Origin: Gammaproteobacteria bacterium
GTDB taxonomy: Bacteria; Pseudomonadota; Gammaproteobacteria; UBA4575
Reading direction: 5' to 3'
Assembly (NCBI GenBank): GCA_965222615.1
Contig: CBDCUI010000009.1
Span: forward strand, 192,001-256,000
Length of the DNA stretch: 64,000 bases
Within the stretch, counting starts at the first letter, position 1; the number at the start of each line of letters is the position of its first letter. The position numbers and the translations under genes are program-made. Shown here in pieces: positions 52,620-64,000 of the stretch. The notes beneath the pieces were generated by a model that had not been told where the DNA came from, did not search any database, and worked only from the letters and a program-made list of their open reading frames with translations.

Positions 52620-55600
52620 ATGAGAACGAAGGATTTCGTATCTCATTTGCTACTATTAATAAGTATCTATGCATTAGCCGTATCTAGTGCAAATTCCAGT
52701 GACTCAGCTGAAGTAGCAAATTGGCAAACTACATTCAATAGCGTCAATTCATCGACATATGTTGAGGATAGGTTGTGGACACCTGAAATATATTCACGTC
52801 TGGCAACCGCTGATACTCATAGCAATAACAATTCTCGAAGTAGTCAAAGCAAATATCACAAGAAAAGAAAAAAACGTAAGCAAGCAGATCTGTCTTTACG
52901 CAAGAGTGTAAACAATCCACGTCCGGATGTTGGAGAGTTTGTTACCTTTACGATTACTGTAAAAAACGATGGCCCGGCAGGCACTGATTACGCAGTGGCT
53001 GATGTAATTCCAAGAGGCTATACCCACATCACTAATATCAGTAAAGGTGGTCATCTGGAAGGTAATGTAATTACTTGGAAACATAATTGGATCGATGCAG
53101 GTGTAAAGCAAACTTTTAGTTTTCGTGCATTGGTTAAAGAGAAAACTGGAGCAAAAGACGAATATAAAAATGTTGCGCAAATCATAAAAAGCAATCGGCC
53201 TGATCCCGACAGCAAACCAAATAATGATGATGGCGATCAAAGTGAAGATGATGAGGACTTCGCAATTGTTGAACCTCAATCCAATGTGGCAGATTTTTCA
53301 TTACATAAAAATGTTGATAACAGAACACCGAATATAGGAGATGTAGTAACTTTTACGATTAGCGTTAAAAACTATGGCCCAGCAGGAGGAGATTATGATG
53401 TACAAGATTTGCTTCCTCCTGGGTTTAGTAAAATCTCGTACATCAACAGGGGAGGTATTCTAAAAGGCAATAAAATTACCTGGAAAGGGCAGTGGATAGG
53501 CAAAGGTGAAACACAGGTATTTAAATTTCGTGCAACCGTAAATTCTCCCAAATGTGTAGCTGATGAATATAAAAATATTGCACAAATCATAAAAAGTAAC
53601 CGACCCGATCCCGACAGTACGCCGAACAACGACGATGGTGATCAAAGTGAAGATGATGAAGACAGTGTTGTTGTTATTCCAAACACCGATATCTGCGATA
53701 CGAATAATGCGGATTTATCGTTACAAAAGACGGTTGATAATAAAACCCCAAATATTGGTGATGTAGTTACTTTTAAAATTAAAGTCAAAAATGATGGTCC
53801 GTCTGGTGCTGATTATCATCTTGAAGATGTAGTTCCCAGCGGTTTCAGCAATATTACTGGTATTACGAGGAATGGTGCACTTGCTGGTAATACGATTACA
53901 TGGAAAAGGCAATGGATAGACAAAGGTGAAATACAGGTATTTAAATTTCATACAACCGTAAATTCACCAAAATGTGTAGCCAGTGAATATAAAAATGTTG
54001 CACAAATCATAAAAAGCAATCGACCTGATCCCGACAGTACGCCGAACAACGACGATGGCGATCAAAGCGAAGATGATGAAGACAGTGCAGCTGTTATTCC
54101 AAATACTAATATCTGTGACATCGGTACTTCTGACTTATCACTAAACAAAACAGTTAACAATGCCACCCCGAATGTAGGTGACACCGTGACGTTTAGTATT
54201 GTGGTGAGCAATGCCGGCCCGGATGCTGCCACCAATGTAGGGGTGAGTGACATTGTACCGGTGGGCTACAGCAACATCAGTAATGTCAGCAATGGCGGCA
54301 GTGTCAATGGCAACAATATTAGTTGGAATGTTGCCAGCATTGCTAGTGGAGCGAGTGTCGCATTGAGCTTTAGTGCAGAAGTGCTCGCACCCACCGGTGT
54401 GGCCGATGAATACAAGAACACGGCCCAAGTCAGTGCTAGTGATCAAAGTGATCCGGACAGTACGCCGAACAATGATGATGGCGATCAAAGTGAAGATGAT
54501 GAAGACAGTGCCAGTGTAATCCCAGGCGGTAGTGCAGGCGTTGCCGATCTGATGTTAACCAAGAGTGTCGACAATGCCACCCCGAATGTAGGCGAGGTGG
54601 TGACGTTTAGTATTGTGGTGAGCAATGCCGGACCCGATGCCGCCACCAATGTAGGGGTGAGTGACATTGTACCGGTGGGCTACAGCAACATCAGTAATGT
54701 CAGCAATGGCGGCAGTGTCAATGGCAACAATATTAGTTGGAGTGTTGCCAGCATTGCTAGTGGAGCGAGTGTCGCATTGAGCTTTACCGCAGAAGTGCTC
54801 GCACCCACCGGTGTGGCCGATGAATACAAGAACACGGCCCAAGCCAGTGCTAGTGATCAAAGTGATCCGGACAGTACACCGAACAATGATGATGGCGATC
54901 AAAGTGAAGATGATGAAGACAGTGCCAGTGTAATCCCAGGCGGTAGTGCAGGCGTTGCCGATCTGATGTTAACCAAGAGTGTCGACAATGCCACCCCGAA
55001 TGTAGGCGAGGTGGTGACGTTTAGTATTGTGGTGAGCAATGCCGGACCGGATGCTGCCACCAATGTAGGGGTGAGTGACATTGTACCGGTGGGCTACAGC
55101 AACATCAGTAATGTCAGCAATGGCGGCAGTGTCAATGGCAACAATATTAGTTGGAGTGTTGCCAGCATTGCTAGTGGAGCCAGTGTCGCGTTGAGCTTTA
55201 GTGCAGAAGTACTCGCCCCAACGGGTGTAGCCGATGAATACAAGAACACCGCCCAAGTTAGCGCCAGTGATCAAAGTGATCCGGATAGTACGCCGAACAA
55301 TGATGATGGCGATCAAAGTGAAGATGATGAAGACAGTGCCAGTGTAATCCCAGGCGGTAGTGCAGGCGTTGCCGATCTGATGTTAACCAAGAGTGTCGAC
55401 AATGCCACCCCGAATGTAGGCGAGGTGGTGACGTTTAGTATTGTGGTGAGCAATGCCGGACCGGATGCTGCCACCAATGTAGGGGTGAGTGACATTGTAC
55501 CGGTGGGCTACAGCAACATCAGTAATGTCAGCAATGGCGGCAGTGTCAATGGCAACAATATTAGTTGGAATGTTGCCAGCATTGCTAGTGGAGCGAGTGT

Positions 55601-58600
55601 CGCATTGAGCTTTACCGCAGAAGTGCTCGCACCCACCGGTGTGGCCGATGAATACAAGAACACGGCCCAAGTTAGTGCTAGTGATCAAAGTGATCCGGAC
55701 AGTACACCGAACAATGATGATGGCGATCAAAGCGAAGATGATGAAGACAGTGCACTGGTGGTTCCACAAATCGATCCAACCGGTCGTTTTTATTGTGAAG
55801 ATACCGGAGAGATCTTAACCGGTGGTTCGGTTGCATTTAGCTCATCAAACGGTGGTTCTACAACTGATTTCTTAGATGGTACTACAGGTGAATATCGTTC
55901 TGACTTTATCGCGCCTGCGGCGGGTACGATGTTTACCATGGCGATTACACCGCCACCAGGAACCATTTTAAGTGTGACTAGACCTGTAAACCCAACTCCC
56001 ATTGCGCCCGCAGGAGCAGTTCCGGTAAATCTGGGTAGTACTGAACAGGGTAATACTGGATTCTTAGTTGATTTCAGTGCAGCTGCAAATACACCTTGGT
56101 ATGACACATTTACGATCGATCCGGGTGATCCCATTATTATCAATAACAATATACCCGTAACGAATTGTGCAACCTCATCTATTTTGTTACGCAAAACTGC
56201 AGCTGAGCAAAGTGTAACAATTGGAAGTCTTGTTCAATATGAGATTAATGCACGTGTGTTACTGCCATTACCGCTTACGGATATCGATATTGTCGATAAC
56301 ATTCCTGGCGGGTTCGTATATGTTGCAGACTCTGCAATTATTATTCGCGCCGGTGCGGATGGTGAGTTAAATACTATTGACGATGTAGTAACGAATGCCA
56401 TAGTTACTGGAACCGATCCAATTACCTTTGAAGACATTGATTTTGCAGCTGGTGAAGAGCTAATTATTCGTTATTTCTTGCAAGTTACTTCGGGTGTGGT
56501 TGAAGGGCAATATGAAAATACTGCTCAATGCTTTAATCAAGGTAACTTAGCGGTTTGTAACCAAGCGGTTGCTTCAGTAGAAGTATCACAAGACCCGATT
56601 CTGGAGAAAACGACCATTATCGGCAAAGTTTGGGATGACATCGATCAAGATGGTTGGCAAGACAATGCCAATGCAAGCAATATCGTTGTGAAACATTTAA
56701 ATGATGATAGTGAAGGAATAAATATTGAATCGATACCTGGACGTTCTGATCAGTTGGATCCTATTGAATTACACCAGGAAAATGTAACAGTCGCTATGTC
56801 AAATGATCATAACAATCCGGTTGTACTGACTTCGGCTGAAGGCACACGATTGGTTATCGATCAAACCGGTAAAGTCACTGCAGAACACACCGGCATGAAA
56901 GCCAAGGGCTTAACTGGGCAAGATTTGCAAGTGGCCAGCGTAATTGATAACGGCAAAATGCACCTTACTATTACAAACCATGGACTACATGAAGCCGGAA
57001 TACCTGGTGTTCGTATTGCCAGCGTTGAGGGTTTATTAGTTGAAACGGATGAATATGGTCGCTATCACTTAGCCGATATCGATGGTGGCCGTTGGGAACG
57101 CGGACGCAATTTTATACTTAAAGTAGATCCTCTAACTCTACCTGAAGGCGCTGAATTTACTACAGAAAATCCCCGTGTCTTACGTATAACACAAGGATTG
57201 ATGAGTAAAATCAACTTTGGCGTGAAATTACCCAAGCAGGATGCCGTATATAAACTGGAAATGCAGGAGCAACATAAGGCCTCTAGACACGAAATCGTCA
57301 AAACGCGTGAACTCGATGGAATTGTAGACCCAATTCATTTTGCGTCGGGTAAAGCCGATATCACGGATACATATATAGCTAAATTAGAGCGTGCCATTAG
57401 TAGTCTTTCCGACAAGGACAATGTGCGTATACACGTAGTTGGCCATACCGATACACAATTGTTAACCCCGGCAACTGCTGCGAAGTTTAAAGATAACTAC
57501 GGGCTCTCCATAGCAAGGGCAGAAGAAGTGGCCGCCAAATTGCGTTCTGAGCTGGGACTTAAAGTAACTTCGGTAGAAATTTCAGGCCGAGGCCCAGATG
57601 AACCTGTTGCCAGTAATGACAACCCAGAAGGCATGGCTAAAAACCGCAGAGTAGAGACGAGTTTACTTTTTGATGAAAGAATATCGAAAAAAATGGTGGC
57701 GACCAGCTATGAAAAAATCGCCGCGGGGCGTAGTGATGTATTACTACCTAAAGGTGGACGAGTTTGGGTGGTGGAAGATCCCACCAAGATTGATCTAAGA
57801 CTGGACGTTATTTTCCATAGTGCGGTTGCAGTTGATAAAGGTGGGAAAGTCTCTGCTGTAAGCTTTAATAACTACAGCAATTACTTGGCTTACATTGATC
57901 GCTGGGAAGTAACGATTTATAACGACTCCGATGTTGATTTAATTTATCCAATTGCAAAGGTCTCAGGTGAGCGCAGCAATTTCTTGGCAATTCATGAACT
58001 GCAACTAGATGCCAGCACAAAACTAGACGATTCACTGTGGTACGTTTTGCGCGTACACGATTCCAAAGGACGCATGGATGAAACCGTGCCCAAACATCTT
58101 GCAGTCGTAGATGCGGAGCTTGCAGGAATGGAGCCAATATCAGAAGAGCAGCAAAGAGAGTTAAGTAGAAGCATTGTTGGTAAAAACAGCCTGAGTAATC
58201 AAAGAATCCCCATACATGGGTCTCGTGTGCGCTTAAATGGCAGTGGTATTGATGCTGGTTATATATTGAGAATTAACGATCTCAGCATTCCAATTTCAGA
58301 AAAAGGCACATTTGCGACAGAACAACACTTACCAATCGGTACGCATAGCTTTGAGGTGAATGTAAGTGATGGCATTGACGATACAACCAGCAGAAATTTG
58401 AACGTAGATGTAAAAGGTAAGCATTTCTTCATGGTTGGTTTGGCTAATTTAACGGTTGGTGAAAATAGTTTATCGGGAAGTGTTGAACCTCTGGGCGAAG
58501 ACGATCACTTTGATGAAGATGTATGGATAGATGGCCGAGTTGCGTTCTATTTGAAAGGCAAAGTGAAAGGCAAGTATTTAATTACTGCACAACTGGATAC

Positions 58601-61142
58601 TACTGAAGATGAATTGCGTAATTTGGGGGATCGTTTAGATGATGAGGATCCACGTAGATTGTTCCGCAAGCTGGATCCTGATAAGTACTATGCCGTATAT
58701 GGTGACGACTCCACTACGATAGATGATACCGATAGCCAGGGAATGTTTTATCTGCGCGTCGATTGGGATAAAAGTATGGCATTGTGGGGCAATTACAATA
58801 CCGATATCACCGGTACCGAGTTTTCGCAATACAACCGCAGCTTATATGGTGCCAAGCTTGAACACCGAAATGTCGACACCACTGAATTTGGTGATCACAA
58901 ACATGAAGTGCATGCATTTGCATCTCAAGCACAAAACGTTGCCGCGCACAATGAATTTGTTGCCACAGGTGGCTCCCTTTATTACTTGCGCGATACCGAT
59001 ATTGTTCAGGGTTCTGAAAAAGTTTGGGTGGAAGTTCGTAATCGTGATACCGAACAAGTTACAGAAAACATCGCGTTAAAACACGGCCAAGATTACGACA
59101 TCGATTATTTGCAAGGACGTATTATTTTAACGCGACCGCTTTCCCAGGTAGATATCGGTAATGGTCCAAACATTATTAAAGACCAACCTTTAGAAGGTGA
59201 TGATGTATTCCTATTAGTGGATTACGAATACAACCCAGAATCATTTGATGCAGACGACGTAACTGCCGGACTACGTGGCAAAGCCTGGTTAAATCAATAC
59301 ATTGGTATTGGTGGTACCTATATCAATGAAGAACGCAATGGCGAAGACTATGAGTTAAAAGGTGCTGATGTAACTCTGAAGGCAGGCAAGGGCACTTACA
59401 TCAAACTTGAATATGCAGAAAGTGATGCCAACCAAACTAACCAAAACTTTATTTCAAATAATGGTGGAATTAACTTTAACAACAAGACCAATACACTAGA
59501 CGAAAACAGTGATGGTGAAGCCTTAGGGATAGAAGCACGAGTTAATTTTGCAGAGATGACAGGCAATAAGCAGCAAGGTTATCTCATGGCGTGGTGGAAA
59601 GATCGTGATGCAAACTTTTCATCTACCGCGCGTCTCGATGATGGTATTGAAACTACAGATACTGGTTTAGAAGGGGTGTGGCAGGCCACCGATAACTTGA
59701 AGTTAAGTACAAGAATTACCAATTTAGACAAACGCGGTGAAGGTGAGTTTACTGCTGCAAGCATACAAGGTGATTACAGCCTGACCGATCGTTTAACCCT
59801 GGGCGCAGAAATTCGTTACGAAGACGAAGAAGATGATACGGGTCTATTTGAAGATACCGAAGCAACATTGGGTGGCCTCGCGTTGCGCTATAAGTTAACA
59901 CCAGACACCGAAGTCTATGGCAGTGCACAAGCTGTGATTGCGGACGATAACGATTATGAAAATAATGCCGGTGTAACCATTGGTGCCAGTCGTCAACTTA
60001 ATACAAGATTGGCATTAAAAGGCGAAGTTACGACAGGTGATCGTGGTGAAGCGATTGTACTTGGCGGTGAATATGCAGTAACACCGAATACCAATATTAG
60101 TATTAATGCTGGGTTTGGTGAAGGTGCAGCAAGTCAGATCGGTACGAATTATGTCACTGCAAATGGAATGGAGCTTTATGGCAGTTATGCAGTGGATCCT
60201 GATCGCACCGATAGTGGTTCCAATATGTTCACGTTTGGTACCAAACGCAGATTCCAGAACGGTTTAACAATATTTACTGAGAGTCAATTTGGCGAAGGTG
60301 ACGAAGAACAAAGTATCGGCCGTACCTACGGCTTGGATTATGATCTGACTGAACAATGGCGACTTAGTGCATCAATACAAAGTAATGATTTAGATCGTGA
60401 TTTAGGTGATATTGATAGACGTGCAGCTACCGTAGGCGCTAAGTTTAGAAATAAAACGGTTCAGTTTGGTAGTGTGCTTGAATATCGTGAAGATGATGAT
60501 CGCTCAACCGACTTGGATAACACTCAATGGCTTACCAGTAACACCATTGAATGGCAGAAAAGTGAAAACTTGAGGTTGCTGGGTAAACTAGATTTGTCTA
60601 CGACTCATAGCGATAGCAATAAAGGCGATGAAGCAAAATATGCCGAGATCGATCTTGGTTTTGCTTATCGACCTGCAACATATGATCGCTGGAATATTTT
60701 AGGCAAATATACCTTCTTGTATGACTTAGGTAGCAGTGGCCAGGATGATGTGACACCAGAAGAGCGTGCGCACATCTTCTCGCTAGAAGGCATTTATGAC
60801 CTTAATCAAAAATGGGAGCTTGGCGCTAAGTATGCACATCGCGAAGGCGATCTGCGTTTAACACGTGGATCCGGCCCATGGTTTGAATCGGGCGCACATT
60901 TAGCTGTAATTCGATCTCGATACCACTTCATTAAGAAATGGGATGCCTTGTTTGAATACCGTTGGTTGGAAAGTGAAAGCGAAGATGATGAAAAACATGG
61001 CGCTTTAGTCGCGGCATACAGGCACCTAGGCAAACACTTTAAAGTCGGTGCTGGGTATAACTTTACTGACTTTAATGACGACCTTACGGACAACGATTAT
61101 GATAGCGATGGTTGGTTTATAGATATAGTAGGTAAGTACTAA
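52620..61142 (+). CDS. giant surface protein: signal peptide, 7-8 DUF11-type Ig-like repeats, OmpA-like peptidoglycan-binding domain, large C-terminal outer-membrane beta-barrel region
   Basis: DLSLxK...PNVG..VTF...N.GP...D..P.G...YKN.AQ repeats; OmpA motif GHTD...LSIARA...NRRVE; amphipathic strands ending GYNFTDF...VGKY. Confidence 0.85.
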   Translation: MRTKDFVSHLLLLISIYALAVSSANSSDSAEVANWQTTFNSVNSSTYVEDRLWTPEIYSRLATADTHSNNNSRSSQSKYHKKRKKRKQADLSLRKSVNNPRPDVGEFVTFTITVKNDGPAGTDYAVADVIPRGYTHITNISKGGHLEGNVITWKHNWIDAGVKQTFSFRALVKEKTGAKDEYKNVAQIIKSNRPDPDSKPNNDDGDQSEDDEDFAIVEPQSNVADFSLHKNVDNRTPNIGDVVTFTISVKNYGPAGGDYDVQDLLPPGFSKISYINRGGILKGNKITWKGQWIGKGETQVFKFRATVNSPKCVADEYKNIAQIIKSNRPDPDSTPNNDDGDQSEDDEDSVVVIPNTDICDTNNADLSLQKTVDNKTPNIGDVVTFKIKVKNDGPSGADYHLEDVVPSGFSNITGITRNGALAGNTITWKRQWIDKGEIQVFKFHTTVNSPKCVASEYKNVAQIIKSNRPDPDSTPNNDDGDQSEDDEDSAAVIPNTNICDIGTSDLSLNKTVNNATPNVGDTVTFSIVVSNAGPDAATNVGVSDIVPVGYSNISNVSNGGSVNGNNISWNVASIASGASVALSFSAEVLAPTGVADEYKNTAQVSASDQSDPDSTPNNDDGDQSEDDEDSASVIPGGSAGVADLMLTKSVDNATPNVGEVVTFSIVVSNAGPDAATNVGVSDIVPVGYSNISNVSNGGSVNGNNISWSVASIASGASVALSFTAEVLAPTGVADEYKNTAQASASDQSDPDSTPNNDDGDQSEDDEDSASVIPGGSAGVADLMLTKSVDNATPNVGEVVTFSIVVSNAGPDAATNVGVSDIVPVGYSNISNVSNGGSVNGNNISWSVASIASGASVALSFSAEVLAPTGVADEYKNTAQVSASDQSDPDSTPNNDDGDQSEDDEDSASVIPGGSAGVADLMLTKSVDNATPNVGEVVTFSIVVSNAGPDAATNVGVSDIVPVGYSNISNVSNGGSVNGNNISWNVASIASGASVALSFTAEVLAPTGVADEYKNTAQVSASDQSDPDSTPNNDDGDQSEDDEDSALVVPQIDPTGRFYCEDTGEILTGGSVAFSSSNGGSTTDFLDGTTGEYRSDFIAPAAGTMFTMAITPPPGTILSVTRPVNPTPIAPAGAVPVNLGSTEQGNTGFLVDFSAAANTPWYDTFTIDPGDPIIINNNIPVTNCATSSILLRKTAAEQSVTIGSLVQYEINARVLLPLPLTDIDIVDNIPGGFVYVADSAIIIRAGADGELNTIDDVVTNAIVTGTDPITFEDIDFAAGEELIIRYFLQVTSGVVEGQYENTAQCFNQGNLAVCNQAVASVEVSQDPILEKTTIIGKVWDDIDQDGWQDNANASNIVVKHLNDDSEGINIESIPGRSDQLDPIELHQENVTVAMSNDHNNPVVLTSAEGTRLVIDQTGKVTAEHTGMKAKGLTGQDLQVASVIDNGKMHLTITNHGLHEAGIPGVRIASVEGLLVETDEYGRYHLADIDGGRWERGRNFILKVDPLTLPEGAEFTTENPRVLRITQGLMSKINFGVKLPKQDAVYKLEMQEQHKASRHEIVKTRELDGIVDPIHFASGKADITDTYIAKLERAISSLSDKDNVRIHVVGHTDTQLLTPATAAKFKDNYGLSIARAEEVAAKLRSELGLKVTSVEISGRGPDEPVASNDNPEGMAKNRRVETSLLFDERISKKMVATSYEKIAAGRSDVLLPKGGRVWVVEDPTKIDLRLDVIFHSAVAVDKGGKVSAVSFNNYSNYLAYIDRWEVTIYNDSDVDLIYPIAKVSGERSNFLAIHELQLDASTKLDDSLWYVLRVHDSKGRMDETVPKHLAVVDAELAGMEPISEEQQRELSRSIVGKNSLSNQRIPIHGSRVRLNGSGIDAGYILRINDLSIPISEKGTFATEQHLPIGTHSFEVNVSDGIDDTTSRNLNVDVKGKHFFMVGLANLTVGENSLSGSVEPLGEDDHFDEDVWIDGRVAFYLKGKVKGKYLITAQLDTTEDELRNLGDRLDDEDPRRLFRKLDPDKYYAVYGDDSTTIDDTDSQGMFYLRVDWDKSMALWGNYNTDITGTEFSQYNRSLYGAKLEHRNVDTTEFGDHKHEVHAFASQAQNVAAHNEFVATGGSLYYLRDTDIVQGSEKVWVEVRNRDTEQVTENIALKHGQDYDIDYLQGRIILTRPLSQVDIGNGPNIIKDQPLEGDDVFLLVDYEYNPESFDADDVTAGLRGKAWLNQYIGIGGTYINEERNGEDYELKGADVTLKAGKGTYIKLEYAESDANQTNQNFISNNGGINFNNKTNTLDENSDGEALGIEARVNFAEMTGNKQQGYLMAWWKDRDANFSSTARLDDGIETTDTGLEGVWQATDNLKLSTRITNLDKRGEGEFTAASIQGDYSLTDRLTLGAEIRYEDEEDDTGLFEDTEATLGGLALRYKLTPDTEVYGSAQAVIADDNDYENNAGVTIGASRQLNTRLALKGEVTTGDRGEAIVLGGEYAVTPNTNISINAGFGEGAASQIGTNYVTANGMELYGSYAVDPDRTDSGSNMFTFGTKRRFQNGLTIFTESQFGEGDEEQSIGRTYGLDYDLTEQWRLSASIQSNDLDRDLGDIDRRAATVGAKFRNKTVQFGSVLEYREDDDRSTDLDNTQWLTSNTIEWQKSENLRLLGKLDLSTTHSDSNKGDEAKYAEIDLGFAYRPATYDRWNILGKYTFLYDLGSSGQDDVTPEERAHIFSLEGIYDLNQKWELGAKYAHREGDLRLTRGSGPWFESGAHLAVIRSRYHFIKKWDALFEYRWLESESEDDEKHGALVAAYRHLGKHFKVGAGYNFTDFNDDLTDNDYDSDGWFIDIVGKY
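52884..55765 (+). repeat. seven intragenic tandem domain repeats; the last four are near-identical 414-bp units
   Basis: Unit starts at 52884, 53289, 53709, 54129, 54543, 54957 and 55371. Confidence 0.92.
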
Positions 61143-61589: not shown

Positions 61590-61787
61590 TGATACTTGGA
61601 ATATTTTGAGTAAATATACATTCGTTAAGCTGGTGTTTTAGTAGTTTTTTAATCCCAACTTCTGCCTAATTGTTGGGTAATGATCTTAATACCCATATAA
61701 TGTCCGCTAACGACCCAATGTATGGACACCTCCAAGCTAAGCAATTAGTTTGTGTGGTGTTAGAAACACAAAAGAAGGAGTCCATAC

Positions 61788-62831
61788 ATGAAACATCTAA
61801 ACATAGTTGGCGTTGATTTAGCAAAAAACGTAATCCAAGTTTGCGTGATGCGCGCGCAGCGACAAGAAGTAATCAATCGTTCCTATAGTCGTACTAAATT
61901 TGCAGTATTTCTCGTTAAACAACAGCGCAGTGTCATCGCCTTTGAAGCATGTGCCAGTAGTCATTATTGGGCACGAAAAGCCAAAGCATTGGGGCATACC
62001 ATCAAAATCATTCCGGCAAAAGCGATCACACCGTATCGTCAAGGCCATAAAACCGATATCAATGATGCCCGCGCGATCGCTGAAGCGGCGAGCCGTCCCC
62101 ACCTACTTGAAGCCCCATTAAAGAGTGTTGAACAACAAGGCTTGCAAGCCGTACAACGTTCAAGAGAGCTTTTGGTACAAGAGCGAACCGGTCTATCCAA
62201 CCACATCCGTGGCATATTGATGGAATTTGGCATCGTCATTCCTAAAGGCTTTGCCGCCTTGCATCAACAGATACCCGAGGTACTAGAAGATGGGGAGAAC
62301 GAGCTACCCGATCTATATCGCCCGACGTTACAGATATTGTACGAACGCTTAGTGCAACTCAAAACAACCATCACGATACTTGATCAACAAATTGCCGCCC
62401 TCATCAAACAACATCCAGGTTGCGAAACGCTCATGAAGATAGAAGGTGTGGGCCCAATCAGTGCGATATTACTGTATGCCAGCCTTGGTAGTGGCGATGC
62501 GTTTAGCCAAGGTAGACAATATGCGGCGTACTTAGGGTTAACGCCCAAGCAATACAGCAGTGGCGGGAAAACGAATCTTATTGGGATAAGTAAAAAGGTT
62601 GCGAATAAACGTTTGCGCTCCGTACTCATTCAAGGAGCACGTGCTTATGTGCACAAGCTCAAAGAACCGAAAAGCCAAAAAGATCGCTGGCTGCTGGCAC
62701 TGATTGAACGTGCCGGCTATGGCAAGGCGGCGGTAGCGTTAGCCAACAAAAATGTGCGCACCGCATGGGCCATGCTGACCCGGGGGACAACGTACAATAA
62801 ACAACATACAACCACGATGCACATTGCATAA
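61788..62831 (+). CDS. IS110 family transposase / bridge recombinase
   Basis: GVDLAKN, FEAC, KTDINDA (DEDD RuvC-like); LGLTPKQYSSGG, ALANK. Confidence 0.95.
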   Translation: MKHLNIVGVDLAKNVIQVCVMRAQRQEVINRSYSRTKFAVFLVKQQRSVIAFEACASSHYWARKAKALGHTIKIIPAKAITPYRQGHKTDINDARAIAEAASRPHLLEAPLKSVEQQGLQAVQRSRELLVQERTGLSNHIRGILMEFGIVIPKGFAALHQQIPEVLEDGENELPDLYRPTLQILYERLVQLKTTITILDQQIAALIKQHPGCETLMKIEGVGPISAILLYASLGSGDAFSQGRQYAAYLGLTPKQYSSGGKTNLIGISKKVANKRLRSVLIQGARAYVHKLKEPKSQKDRWLLALIERAGYGKAAVALANKNVRTAWAMLTRGTTYNKQHTTTMHIA

Positions 62832-62849
62832 AAACAAAACCAAGACACT

Positions 62850-63045
62850 ACGTTACATAAAAGTGTAGAAGAGGTTAGGCAAGTAGACCTAGGTAAAGAA
62901 TAAAGAGATTCGCTTCGATGAAACCTGCTCCGCTTTGAGGATAAATAGAATCCATCGACCCAATGAGGCATCGAAGTGCGCATACATACAGGGCTAGAAG
63001 ATCGCAACTTCACGAAAAAGCCGAATATACATCTGCGTCTTTTTC
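62850..63045 (+). ncRNA. bridge/seek RNA of the first IS1111 element (ends approximate)
   Basis: Stem CTTCGATG/CATCGAAG encloses TCCGCTTTG and CGACCCA, which match the two flanks. The second loop has CATACAT and ATATACA, which match the element ends. Confidence 0.8.
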
Positions 63046-63106
63046 TTTATCAATTTCTGTTTGCTAAACTGGCGGTGTCCATATACAAAGCGGACAAATA
63101 TAAATT

Positions 63107-63304
63107 ATGCTTTGTGATTATATACTTTGGTTTCTTATGGCCGCTTTTCTGATCGTGGTTTTAAAGCACAGTTATGTTTTATATATGTATTTAGTCAGAA
63201 AAGAAAGCATATCTATGACAGATAGTGCATCTAAGGTCTATTCGCTATTACTGTTATTAGCGGTTGCCCTGAGCTTGATTTGCCAATTAAACATTATTGA
63301 TTAA
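63107..63304 (+). CDS. small two-TM hypothetical protein, cassette-like
   Basis: 65 aa with two hydrophobic segments; starts 10 bp after one palindromic site and its stop codon abuts the next. Confidence 0.45.
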   Translation: MLCDYILWFLMAAFLIVVLKHSYVLYMYLVRKESISMTDSASKVYSLLLLLAVALSLICQLNIID

Positions 63305-63359
63305 ATGTCCGTATATGGCCTCCCTCCGTTTGCAAGCAAAATATTCAATGACAAAGTAG

Positions 63360-63535
63360 AGTCGACTGCACACGTATATTCGGCCTCTATTGATAGCAAG
63401 CGCTATTGATAGCAAGCGTTGATGCTGGGCCAGGATGGTGTATTCGCACCTAAGCACCCAATCGCTATTACGTACTCGAAGTACCTGGACATTCACGGGT
63501 TACGCTTAGGTCGGTTCGACCGGTTTGCCATCTAA
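63360..63535 (-). ncRNA. bridge/seek RNA of the second IS1111 element (ends approximate)
   Basis: Stem CCTAAGC/GCTTAGG encloses AATGTCC and AATAGCG; downstream loop contains ATATACG matching the element's right end plus core. Confidence 0.7.
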
Positions 63536-63607
63536 TAAATTACTTTGCAATCGTGGTAGATAATCCTCTTAAGTGTAAGTACATGTAATTTCGTTAATTG
63601 TTTTATT

Positions 63608-64000
63608 TCACATAAGCGCAAAGTTCGGATCATATTCACTTTCATCTCGCAACATTGCAAATGCCATACGCACGGTTTTATTCGCCAGTGCGACAGCGGC
63701 CACATTCGTATGTTTGGTTTTAGAAAGATGCGTGACCCACTGACTCAATCGATCCTCTTTATGTTTCGCTTGCGAGACGACAGCCCTTGCTCCGTGAATG
63801 AGTAAGGTGCGCAGATAGGCATCGCCGCGTTTACTGATTTCCAGTAAACGCTCTTTATTGCCTGAACTGTGTTGTCTGGGGGTTAAGCCTAAGGCTGCCG
63901 CCATCTGGCGACTGCTCTTGTATTGTTTGGCATCGCCTACCGTGGCAATCAATGCTGTGGCCACCATCGGCCCGACCCCTCGTAGCTGTTGTAGACGCTT
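63608..64000 (-). CDS. IS110 family transposase, C-terminal part (start outside the window)
   Basis: GVGPMVATA, LGLTPRQHSSG, ISKRGDAYLRTLLIHGAR, ALANK. Confidence 0.92.
   Translation of the reverse strand, partial: KRLQQLRGVGPMVATALIATVGDAKQYKSSRQMAAALGLTPRQHSSGNKERLLEISKRGDAYLRTLLIHGARAVVSQAKHKEDRLSQWVTHLSKTKHTNVAAVALANKTVRMAFAMLRDESEYDPNFALM

Follow-up and report, generated by a model that had tools for sequence, protein, structure and literature searches.

The stretch of DNA analysed here ("the window": 64,000 nucleotides, positions 192,001 to 256,000 of contig CBDCUI010000009.1 from the Gammaproteobacteria bacterium assembly GCA_965222615.1; G000:C9:192001-256000 in our own numbering) ends inside a mobile element that we call element 2. 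We are highly confident that the portion within the window is the right-hand part of a complete, ordinary and intact insertion sequence of the IS1111 group (IS110 family), of the RNA-guided kind and inserted in a palindromic repeat. The original prediction, made from the letters of the window, had already assigned the element to this group, and the sequences on which it relied (AATGTCCG, the two arms of a stem, AATGTCC, AATAGCG and ATATACG) all lie where it had placed them. The rest of the element was read from the genome beyond the window, and the parts that fall inside it are the following.

63312..64000, minus strand: element 2, copy A, of which the right end and the last 130 transposase codons are inside the window
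63312..63326, minus strand: right terminus of element 2, consisting of the ATA extension (63312-63314) and a 12-bp subterminal inverted repeat (63315-63326)
63608..64000, minus strand: 3' part of the transposase gene (full gene 344 amino acids, L001 1807-2841)
63304..63311, no strand assigned: half of the target site (AATGTCCG); it forms the left arm of the palindrome in its T1 variant and, in the transposase sense, flanks element 2 on the right

Comparison of filled with empty sites sets the length of element 2 at 1424 bp (L001 1511-2934, equivalent to 63312-64735 of the window) and reveals no target duplication, one base (C) being assignable to either side. Read in the transposase sense, the element runs CAATGGT-ATGGCCTCCCTC ... 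GAGGGAGGCCAT-ATA. Its subterminal inverted repeats are perfect over 12 bp in all six copies that the genome holds, the partner repeat GAGGGAGGCCAT lying beyond the window at about L001 2916-2927, and they are set in from the termini by extensions of 7 bp on the left (CAATGGT) and 3 bp on the right (ATA). The non-coding ends measure 94 nt upstream of the transposase gene and 296 nt downstream, the longer end being downstream as is usual in the IS1111 group. The protein matches both domains of the IS110 family, PF01548 (DEDD_Tnp_IS110) over residues 8-149 (E = 2e-20) and PF02371 (Transposase_20) over residues 215-293 (E = 3e-24), and scores 347 bits, against a cut-off of 140, with NCBIfam NF033542 ('IS110 family RNA-guided transposase'). 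The structures solved for the IS621 and ISCro4 transposases align with its C-terminal domain (E about 1e-10), and the protein contains GLTPRQHSSG, which conforms to the motif GL-P----S(t)G. The IS1111 group is described by this motif, by near-perfect subterminal inverted repeats that are usually 11-13 bp long and by extensions of 7 (or 6) and 3 bp (PMC11187229).

Four of the six copies are 98.6-100% identical in DNA and two are about 78% identical. The 344-codon frame is intact in every copy; the proteins are identical among the four and between the two, and 83.7% alike from one group to the other. On the plus strand each copy starts after AATGWCCG (or a near variant) with TATATGGCCTCCCTC, and at the far end reads ...GAGGGAGGCCATACCATTG and then CTATTGGMCGAAWGCRGWCAT. 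The two variant copies (C9:960806-962231 and C7:813541-814962; ~78% DNA and 83.7% protein identity) keep the target and both target guides, and form a natural pair for asking how far enzyme and RNA drift under a fixed target. When plasmids were searched with the element 2 transposase, the best matches were 53-68% identical; the one plasmid region examined (H4, from a Citrobacter IncC plasmid) is not inside an integron and gives no information on the target.

Element 2 interrupts a 28-bp palindrome, ATGWCCG^CTATTGGCCGAAAGCGGACAT (the caret marks the insertion point), uninterrupted copies of which occur elsewhere in the genome, for example ATGACCGCTATTGGCCGAAAGCGGACAT at C9:82089. The target reads ...GGCCAATAG^CGGWCATT in the transposase sense, and in the window AATGTCCG directly adjoins the start of the element at 63312. 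It had been predicted that the far flank, outside the window, would begin at about CGCTATT and that the joined flanks would restore a hairpin, and both expectations were borne out. The plus strand there reads ...CCATTG followed by CTATTGGACGAAAGCAGACAT, or in detail TG/CTATTGG, so that the flank proper starts CTATT after the terminal G of the element (GCTATT as against the predicted CGCTATT). The joined flanks give TGTCCGCT...AGCAGACA, one mismatch from the predicted hairpin, and those of all six copies rebuild the palindrome.

The downstream non-coding end contains what appears to be the guide RNA of the element.

63363..63553, minus strand: predicted core of the guide RNA, with the closing helix CGAUUGC (63553-63547) / GCAGUCG (63369-63363)
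63449..63510, minus strand: predicted target-binding stem-loop; outer stem CCUAAGC/GCUUAGG, followed inwards by a short helix and, at the apex, a hairpin

On the minus strand CCTAAGC (63504-63510) pairs with GCTTAGG (63449-63455), and the stem-loop so formed had been proposed to be a target-binding loop, in agreement with which its two sides match the two flanks. The 5' target guide, AAUGUCC (63493-63487), is complementary to the top strand GGACATT of the right flank, while the 3' target guide, AAUAGCG (63469-63463), repeats the left-flank letters AATAG followed by CG and would thus pair with the bottom strand, spanning the insertion point. In the window copy the two matches, which share one base, amount to 7/7 and 7/8. 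Folding of 63444-63516 on the minus strand places both 7-mers in one internal loop around the apical hairpin (-23.7 kcal/mol, z = -1.95, with 4 of 200 shuffles as good). As a chance control we looked for two 7-mers, one complementary to the right flank and, within 45 nt on its 3' side, another with the top-strand letters that span the insertion point; this arrangement, in the right order and place, occurred in 31 of 20000 mononucleotide shuffles of the 296-nt non-coding end. In ISEc11, ISPa11 and ISKpn4, too, the top-strand match is reported to lie 5' of the bottom-strand match and to overlap it in the target (PMC11187229).

Across the family of element 2, the guides vary together with the flanks of the element that carries them. 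A scan for relatives, with one genome per species, gave 532 stretches encoding relatives, of which 79 loci were kept. We set aside 13 that were short of flank, eight in which a simple search found no inverted repeat and three with an unrelated repeat; the remaining 55 relatives (63-83% protein identity) and the six copies of this genome make up the family set (n = 61). Against its own flank the 5' guide matches at a mean of 5.95 of 8 positions, compared with 5.15 for permuted flanks, and the 3' guide at 6.41 of 7, compared with 5.05; in neither case was the observed value reached in 5000 permutations. Of the 61 elements, 37 have a perfect 3' guide, and in 22 the 5' guide matches at seven or more positions, or in 32 if wobble pairs are counted. 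Most of the 55 relatives are inserted at ...AAG^CGGACATT, in Pseudomonas, Massilia, Woeseiaceae and others, and many lie in non-palindromic flanks. Some of the 5' guides are as follows.

L070: guide AGGGGCCG, reverse complement of flank AGGGGCCG
L057: guide ACUGUCCG, reverse complement of flank ACTGTCCG
L075: guide UAAGUCC, reverse complement of flank TAAGTCCG
L047: guide GUAGGUCG, reverse complement of flank GTAGGTCG

The score of 1/8 given to L047 reflects a shift of alignment register. The 3' guides GCGAACG, UAUAGCG, ACAAGCG and others correspond in the same way to the left flank of their own element plus CG. Two segments for opposite target strands, both covarying with the target and in IS1111 elements with the top-strand match 5', are what defines a seekRNA or bridge RNA.

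The helices of the predicted RNA covary as well. We aligned 43 non-redundant RNAs (44 at less than 93% similarity, minus the window copy, which was omitted because of a 16-nt duplication discussed below), and in this alignment RNAalifold found 38 pairs in eight helices, 18 of the pairs with changes on both sides. Cells were paired in 98.2% of cases, compared with 93.0% in shuffled alignments and 25.9-42.3% when partners were slid, and none of 500 shuffles reached any of five measures of the fold. The covariation falls in three helices of the target arm and two of the donor region. Within this genome, the two 78% copies retain both guides and have compensated their helices, CCUAAGC/GCUUAGG having become GCAAG/CUUGC and ACCC/GGGU having become ACUC/GAGA.

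A second pair of guides, which would read the ends of the element itself, lies in the donor region, and a candidate promoter spans the ends when they are joined.

63373..63379, minus strand: donor guide of the 3' side, AUAUACG, the sense of right end ATATA plus C(G/A)
63435..63439, minus strand: probable donor guide of the 5' side, ACCAU, complementary to ATGGT of the left end CAATGGTATGG
63330..63335, minus strand: putative -35 box TTGCAA, 16 nt from the -10 box TACAAT, formed only when the right end joins the left end

AUAUACG had been named as a donor guide from the start, and it does match the right end of element 2; in L046 and L084, where the right end is CATACA, the guide reads AUACACG, and the guide thus follows the end. 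ACCAU (63439-63435), which the original prediction had missed, probably serves as the second donor guide. The left end CAATGGG (CAATGGGATGG) goes with CCCAU and the left end CAATGGTATGG with ACCAU, with three exceptions among the 61 (L039, L062 and L070). Since RNAalifold pairs ACCAU with GAUGG instead, we can only infer its role as a guide. The donor and target pairs are built in parallel: in both, the 5' guide reads the top strand from the second junction base and the 3' guide consists of five bases plus the junction bases. Location of the donor-binding bases in a multiloop is reported for many IS1111 elements by Durrant et al. (PMC11208160).

A CG core had been proposed, and the target indeed reads CG, but the left end of the element reads CA in all six copies and in 54 of the 55 relatives, and only the C is common to both junctions. 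Eight relatives are inserted at targets starting CA. As a speculation, the G with which both 3' guides end could pair with a bottom-strand C or form a wobble pair with a T there; if so, the element 2 clade would tolerate a mismatched second core base through G-T pairing, unlike IS621. ISEc11 is said to possess a junction promoter (Pjunc). For circularised element 2 the sequences likewise suggest one, the arrangement of a -35 box, 15-19 nt and a -10 box spanning the join in 55 of the 61 family members, and junction promoters are described for the IS110/IS1111 family (PMC12288879).

A number of observations weigh against the RNA-guided reading or temper it. The 5' guide is perfect over all 8 nt in only 5 of the 61, L026, L044, L046 and L076 match poorly (2-3/8), and copies B and D of this genome are inserted at CGGTCATT, with one mismatch to the guide. 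The permutation figures overstate independence because the relatives are kin. The closing helix and the helix covering ACCAU are nearly invariant, the former never covarying, and they are therefore uninformative either way. The full 307-nt non-coding end folds no better than shuffled sequences (z = -1.01, 10 of 100), so that the case rests only on the sub-structures and the comparative data. The second core base is G in the target and A in the element. A search of sequencing runs listed no RNA run containing the element sequence, and Rfam has no matching family; one weak snoRNA match to the non-coding end (E = 0.15) was dismissed as chance. In contigs of related samples (four runs) we saw no empty site at this position and no circle junction, and in two of these runs, X2 and X4, no contig covered the small open frame beside element 2. 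The last such observation concerns the window copy alone.

63387..63418, minus strand: 16-nt tandem duplication (CTATTGATAGCAAGCG twice on the plus strand) in the predicted donor-binding multiloop, present in this copy only

The non-coding end of 296 nt in the window copy compares with 280 nt in its three sister copies, and an element contig from run X2 also has no extra 16 nt. The duplication, which lies in the donor-binding region, may impair the RNA of the window copy itself, and one could go further and suppose that this copy is non-autonomous, its guide RNA crippled, and that it moves only with RNA from the three sister copies. The position within a multi-branched region, the lack of the duplication in copies B, C and D as well as in the X2 contig, and the variation of the duplicated stretch by only a few bases in length among the 43 aligned relatives are all compatible with this idea, and the ISEc11 seekRNA is reported to work when supplied in trans (PMC11187229). 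However, no part of the RNA is less conserved than the duplicated stretch, the window copy retains its two target guides, its two donor guides and every helix intact, and its transposase is identical to those of the sister copies. Loss of autonomy seems to us a possibility worth keeping in mind, but on the unlikely side.

Next to element 2 lies another element of the same group.

61716..63085, plus strand: element 1, a neighbouring IS1111-group element (transposase 61788-62831; ends ambiguous by 1-3 bases)
63107..63304, plus strand: open frame of 65 codons between elements 1 and 2, bounded by two interrupted palindromes

Element 1 is present in five to six copies in the genome and is built like element 2. 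Its transposase is 41% identical to that of element 2 (138/339) and contains GLTPKQYSSG; its extensions measure 6 and 3 bp, and its non-coding ends 255 nt downstream and 70 nt upstream. Two variants of the repeat exist, one (T1) centred on GGCC and the other (T2) on GACCC, and element 1 occupies T2, at GACC^CAAAGCGGACA (full site ATGWCYGCTAACGACC^CAAAGCGGACAT). As had been anticipated, it carries different guides for the same repeat family: the target guide CCGCUUUG (62930-62937) is complementary to CAAAGCGG, and the target guide CGACCCAA (62956-62963) has the sense of CGACC+CAA. Its donor guides are CAUACAU (62981-62987) and AAUAUAC (63024-63030).

In 400 sampled genomes of the class, including the unpublished G039 and G141, we found no relative of element 1 above 46% identity (best 43-46%). 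These relatives were therefore unusable for covariation, and a metagenome scan supplied others instead: of 80 loci, 28 had full ends and flanks, those dropped comprising 15 with short flanks, one without a repeat and three with other repeats, as well as partial genes. Most of the 28 read GACC^CAAAGCGGAC. Together with the copy of this genome (n = 29), they gave a mean match of 7.03 of 8 for the 5' guide (6.26 permuted) and 6.72 of 8 for the 3' guide (6.03 permuted), with 0 of 5000 permutations reaching the observed value in each case. The 5' donor guide is the reverse complement of the left end at 9/9 positions in 25 of the 29. Within this clade the donor guide switches from UUG to UAG where the end goes from CAATG to CTATG, and L164, with the end CAGATA, has the guide AGAUACG.

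In the subclade of element 1 with the CTATG left end (L140, L144, L146-L148, L154-L162), the 3' target guide is UGACCCUU, which agrees less well with the uninterrupted target (TGACC+CAA) than with the left flank extended by the opening bases of the element (TGACC+CT). These guides recall the 'handshake' guides of IS621.

The insertion points of the two elements are 5 bp apart, GACC^CAAAG^CGGACAT. The left arm beside element 2 in the window is equivalent to a right arm ...GGCCGAAAG^CGGACAT, and element 1 uses GACC^CAAAGCGGACAT. The original prediction had spoken of one site entered at a different position and on a different strand. The difference in position stands; the sites are in fact two variants of the palindrome, and, because the site is palindromic, both elements have the same direction relative to the arm ...AAAGCGGACAT. 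Their placement on different strands of the window results solely from the use of opposite arms.

It had also been suggested that the two recombinases converged on the repeat, a natural instance of reprogramming. In its full form this would mean that two unrelated lineages arrived independently at one repeat family through reprogrammed guides, and that the event is visible here. The distance between the two transposases (41% identity), the different guides and the want of element 1 relatives above 46% identity in the 400 class genomes are in keeping with such a history, as is the fact that IS1111-group elements about equally far from element 1 (L186, L190, L192) have unrelated flanks. Against it, many relatives of both lineages, found in other genera and in metagenomes, show the register and target of their own clade. 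The specificities are therefore old, so that any retargeting would be ancient and would not have taken place in this genome. The elements also share their termini (CAATG...CCATATA), the first junction base C and the orientation on the arm, and overlapping registers 5 bp apart fit divergence from one ancestral target equally well. We consider independent convergence rather unlikely; recent convergence is not shown by these data, which fit convergence and divergence from a shared ancestral target alike.

The palindrome itself behaves as a lineage-typical repeat resembling repetitive extragenic palindromes (REPs), that is, as a short palindrome dispersed between genes. This status follows from a census of the pattern ATGWCYGCT-N10-AGCRGWCAT, which was present in 14 of the 41 related genomes that were searched, among them 12 of the 24 from the same family and one genome of another family, and reaches up to 103 copies per genome (56-103 in G402, G406 and G417), as against none in any of the 41 genomes for the reversed control. 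In the present genome only five strict intact palindromes are left, and at least 14 palindrome sites are interrupted, six by element 2, six by element 1 and two by an IS30-family element. T1 is often paired with T2 across a spacer of ~55 bp: there are four full pairs and about nine that are partial or interrupted (E < 0.001).

The full composites of ~115 bp, with GGTTGGA in the spacer, lie at C9:82089-82199, C7:818943-819053, C9:833017-833126 and C9:925497-925603. They sit between small genes and are clustered in a few regions. The IS30-family element (1227 bp with terminal repeats of ~26 bp; L001 3018-4244, C9:256819-258045) is found just past the window, inserted in the centre of a T2 palindrome (ACGAC/.../CCAAAGCGG), with a second copy at C7:815442-816667; it is the third kind of insertion sequence that uses the repeat. 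In other genomes, the element 2 relatives L060 and L080 are directly beside a similar IS30-type end.

Two other identities for the target were considered and rejected. The genome has one Y1 transposase gene, with no palindrome within about 700 bases of it, which argues against a REP linked to a REP-associated tyrosine transposase (RAYT). An integron attC site was rejected because the cassette array beside intI has canonical CTAAC...GTTAG sites, which are unlike the palindrome; the nearest palindrome cluster is more than 100 kb from intI. The chromosomal integron concerned (C9:387000-398300; IntI 490 bits, cut-off 265) has a dozen or more small cassettes with canonical attC sites and is unrelated to the palindromes. 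An attC-like end, GCCGTTAGC, was noticed near C7:816670, beside a T2 site.

One might imagine that the pair of palindromes (T1, spacer and T2; ~115 bp) is an old landing pad shared across taxa, used by two IS1111 clades in fixed registers 5 bp apart and by an IS30-family element too, and that the two RNA-guided elements may move and persist along with the repeat that houses them. In this genome more copies of the repeat are occupied by insertion sequences than are intact, and relatives of both clades are found elsewhere at the same sequence. We nevertheless give this wider scenario little credence.

Taking these data together, we can outline how element 2 might move. The element encodes a DEDD/serine recombinase and, downstream of its gene, what appears to be a structured RNA of ~190 nt (a seekRNA or bridge RNA). 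In the internal loop of this RNA, AAUGUCC would pair with the top strand to the right of the insertion point, and AAUAGCG with the bottom strand to the left and across the point, while the multi-branched region with ACCAU and AUAUACG would read the element's left and right ends with the same 5'/3' logic. A complex of recombinase and RNA could then join the circularised element and the target, with strand exchange at ...AATAG^CGGACATT in one arm of the 28-bp palindromic repeat that is common in this bacterial family. Circularisation would also assemble the promoter (TTGCAA, 16 nt, TACAAT) over the joined ends, which would drive the recombinase gene. Beyond the observed anatomy, empty sites and covariation of guides and helices, the action of the guide as an RNA, the formation of the circle and the activity of the promoter are proposed by analogy with ISEc11, ISPa11, ISKpn4 and IS621, and the ideas that the RNA is made, is bound by the transposase and is needed for movement, and that there is a circular intermediate, rest on experiments with relatives. 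It is very improbable that the complementary stretches act as DNA or are incidental, with the protein recognising a hairpin or DNA pairing with DNA as in IS200/IS605, for although a palindromic target could extrude as a hairpin and no RNA run was listed with the sequence of element 2, the flank-covarying guides lie in the loops of a structure whose helices covary as RNA helices, G-U pairs included, many relatives occupy non-palindromic flanks, and RNA is reported to be needed by, and to co-purify with, close family members (PMC11187229; PMC11208160).

As an RNA-guided element, element 2 belongs to a known kind. RNA-guided target choice by IS1111 and IS110 elements was reported in 2024 (PMC11187229; PMC11208160), and REP sequences were reported as targets of these families in 2006 (PMC1525189). 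The closest counterparts are ISPa11, ISEc11, ISKpn4 and ISPst6 (Siddiquee et al. 2024, PMC11187229), which by that account share with element 2 a DEDD transposase of 330-350 amino acids containing GL-P----S(t)G, subterminal repeats (11-13 bp) plus 7/3-bp extensions, a long downstream non-coding region, the order and overlap of the seekRNA matches and the lack of a target duplication. ISPa11, from Pseudomonas aeruginosa, is also described as inserting in a repetitive extragenic palindrome (PMC11187229), but its guide sequences and its target palindrome are different, as far as a comparison by description allows. In IS621 (PMC11208160; structures 8wt6 and others), as reported, a single RNA likewise combines a target-binding with a donor-binding loop, both of which read the two strands around a short core, and a promoter is found at the circle junction. 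Element 2 departs from IS621 in that its RNA lies at the opposite end, the strand matches come in reverse order, its inverted repeats are long, the donor guides lie in a multiloop and the core is CA against CG, not an identical dinucleotide in donor and target.

The sharing of one repeat by two elements also has precedents. ISPpu9 and ISPpu10 of Pseudomonas putida KT2440 are two diverged IS110-family elements on one repeat in one genome (PMC12288879; PMC1525189), and they are described as preferring paired repeats (bacterial interspersed mosaic elements, BIMEs; PMC12288879), much as the repeats here are also paired as T1-spacer-T2. They belong, however, to the IS110 group: according to their description, the RNA lies upstream of the gene and each end has an AG or CT dinucleotide. 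Elements 1 and 2, by contrast, are of the IS1111 group, and their two registers, separated by 5 bp, fall on two sequence variants of the repeat. The IS1111-attC elements ISKpn4, ISPst6 and ISPa25 are reported to combine diverged transposases (46% identical between ISKpn4 and ISPa25) with seekRNAs for one structured target (PMC11187229), and their clades are related much as those of elements 1 and 2 are; unlike the elements described here, they have identical guide matches and an identical position, and their target is the attC site of integrons.

RNA guidance in the IS1111 group, the targeting of repeats and the occurrence of two diverged elements on one repeat are thus all published, and the present elements are new members of the group, whose only departures from the known kind are the unequal second core base and the copy-specific 16-nt duplication. 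They leave knowledge of the mechanism unchanged. What they do contribute is a pair of well-resolved natural cases for the catalogue of IS1111 guide RNAs, backed by dozens of relatives and by empty sites, in which every base of the target loop and the donor region can be read and in which the covariation tables show the positions of specificity. The pairing of two diverged enzymes, each with an RNA of its own, at points 5 bp apart in a single short palindrome also offers a natural test of orthogonality for engineering.

For annotation, the elements explain why most copies of the palindrome are interrupted in this genome and why contigs break in these regions. Contig C7 ends inside a copy of element 1 (C7:822607-822884) and contig C8 begins beside one (C8:448-1848), and because the contig ends fall in or next to such copies, the assembly breaks seem to be caused by the repeated elements. 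Finally, just upstream of both elements in the window is an open frame of 2840 codons (52620-61142) with many tandem repeat domains and an OmpA-like C-terminal part.

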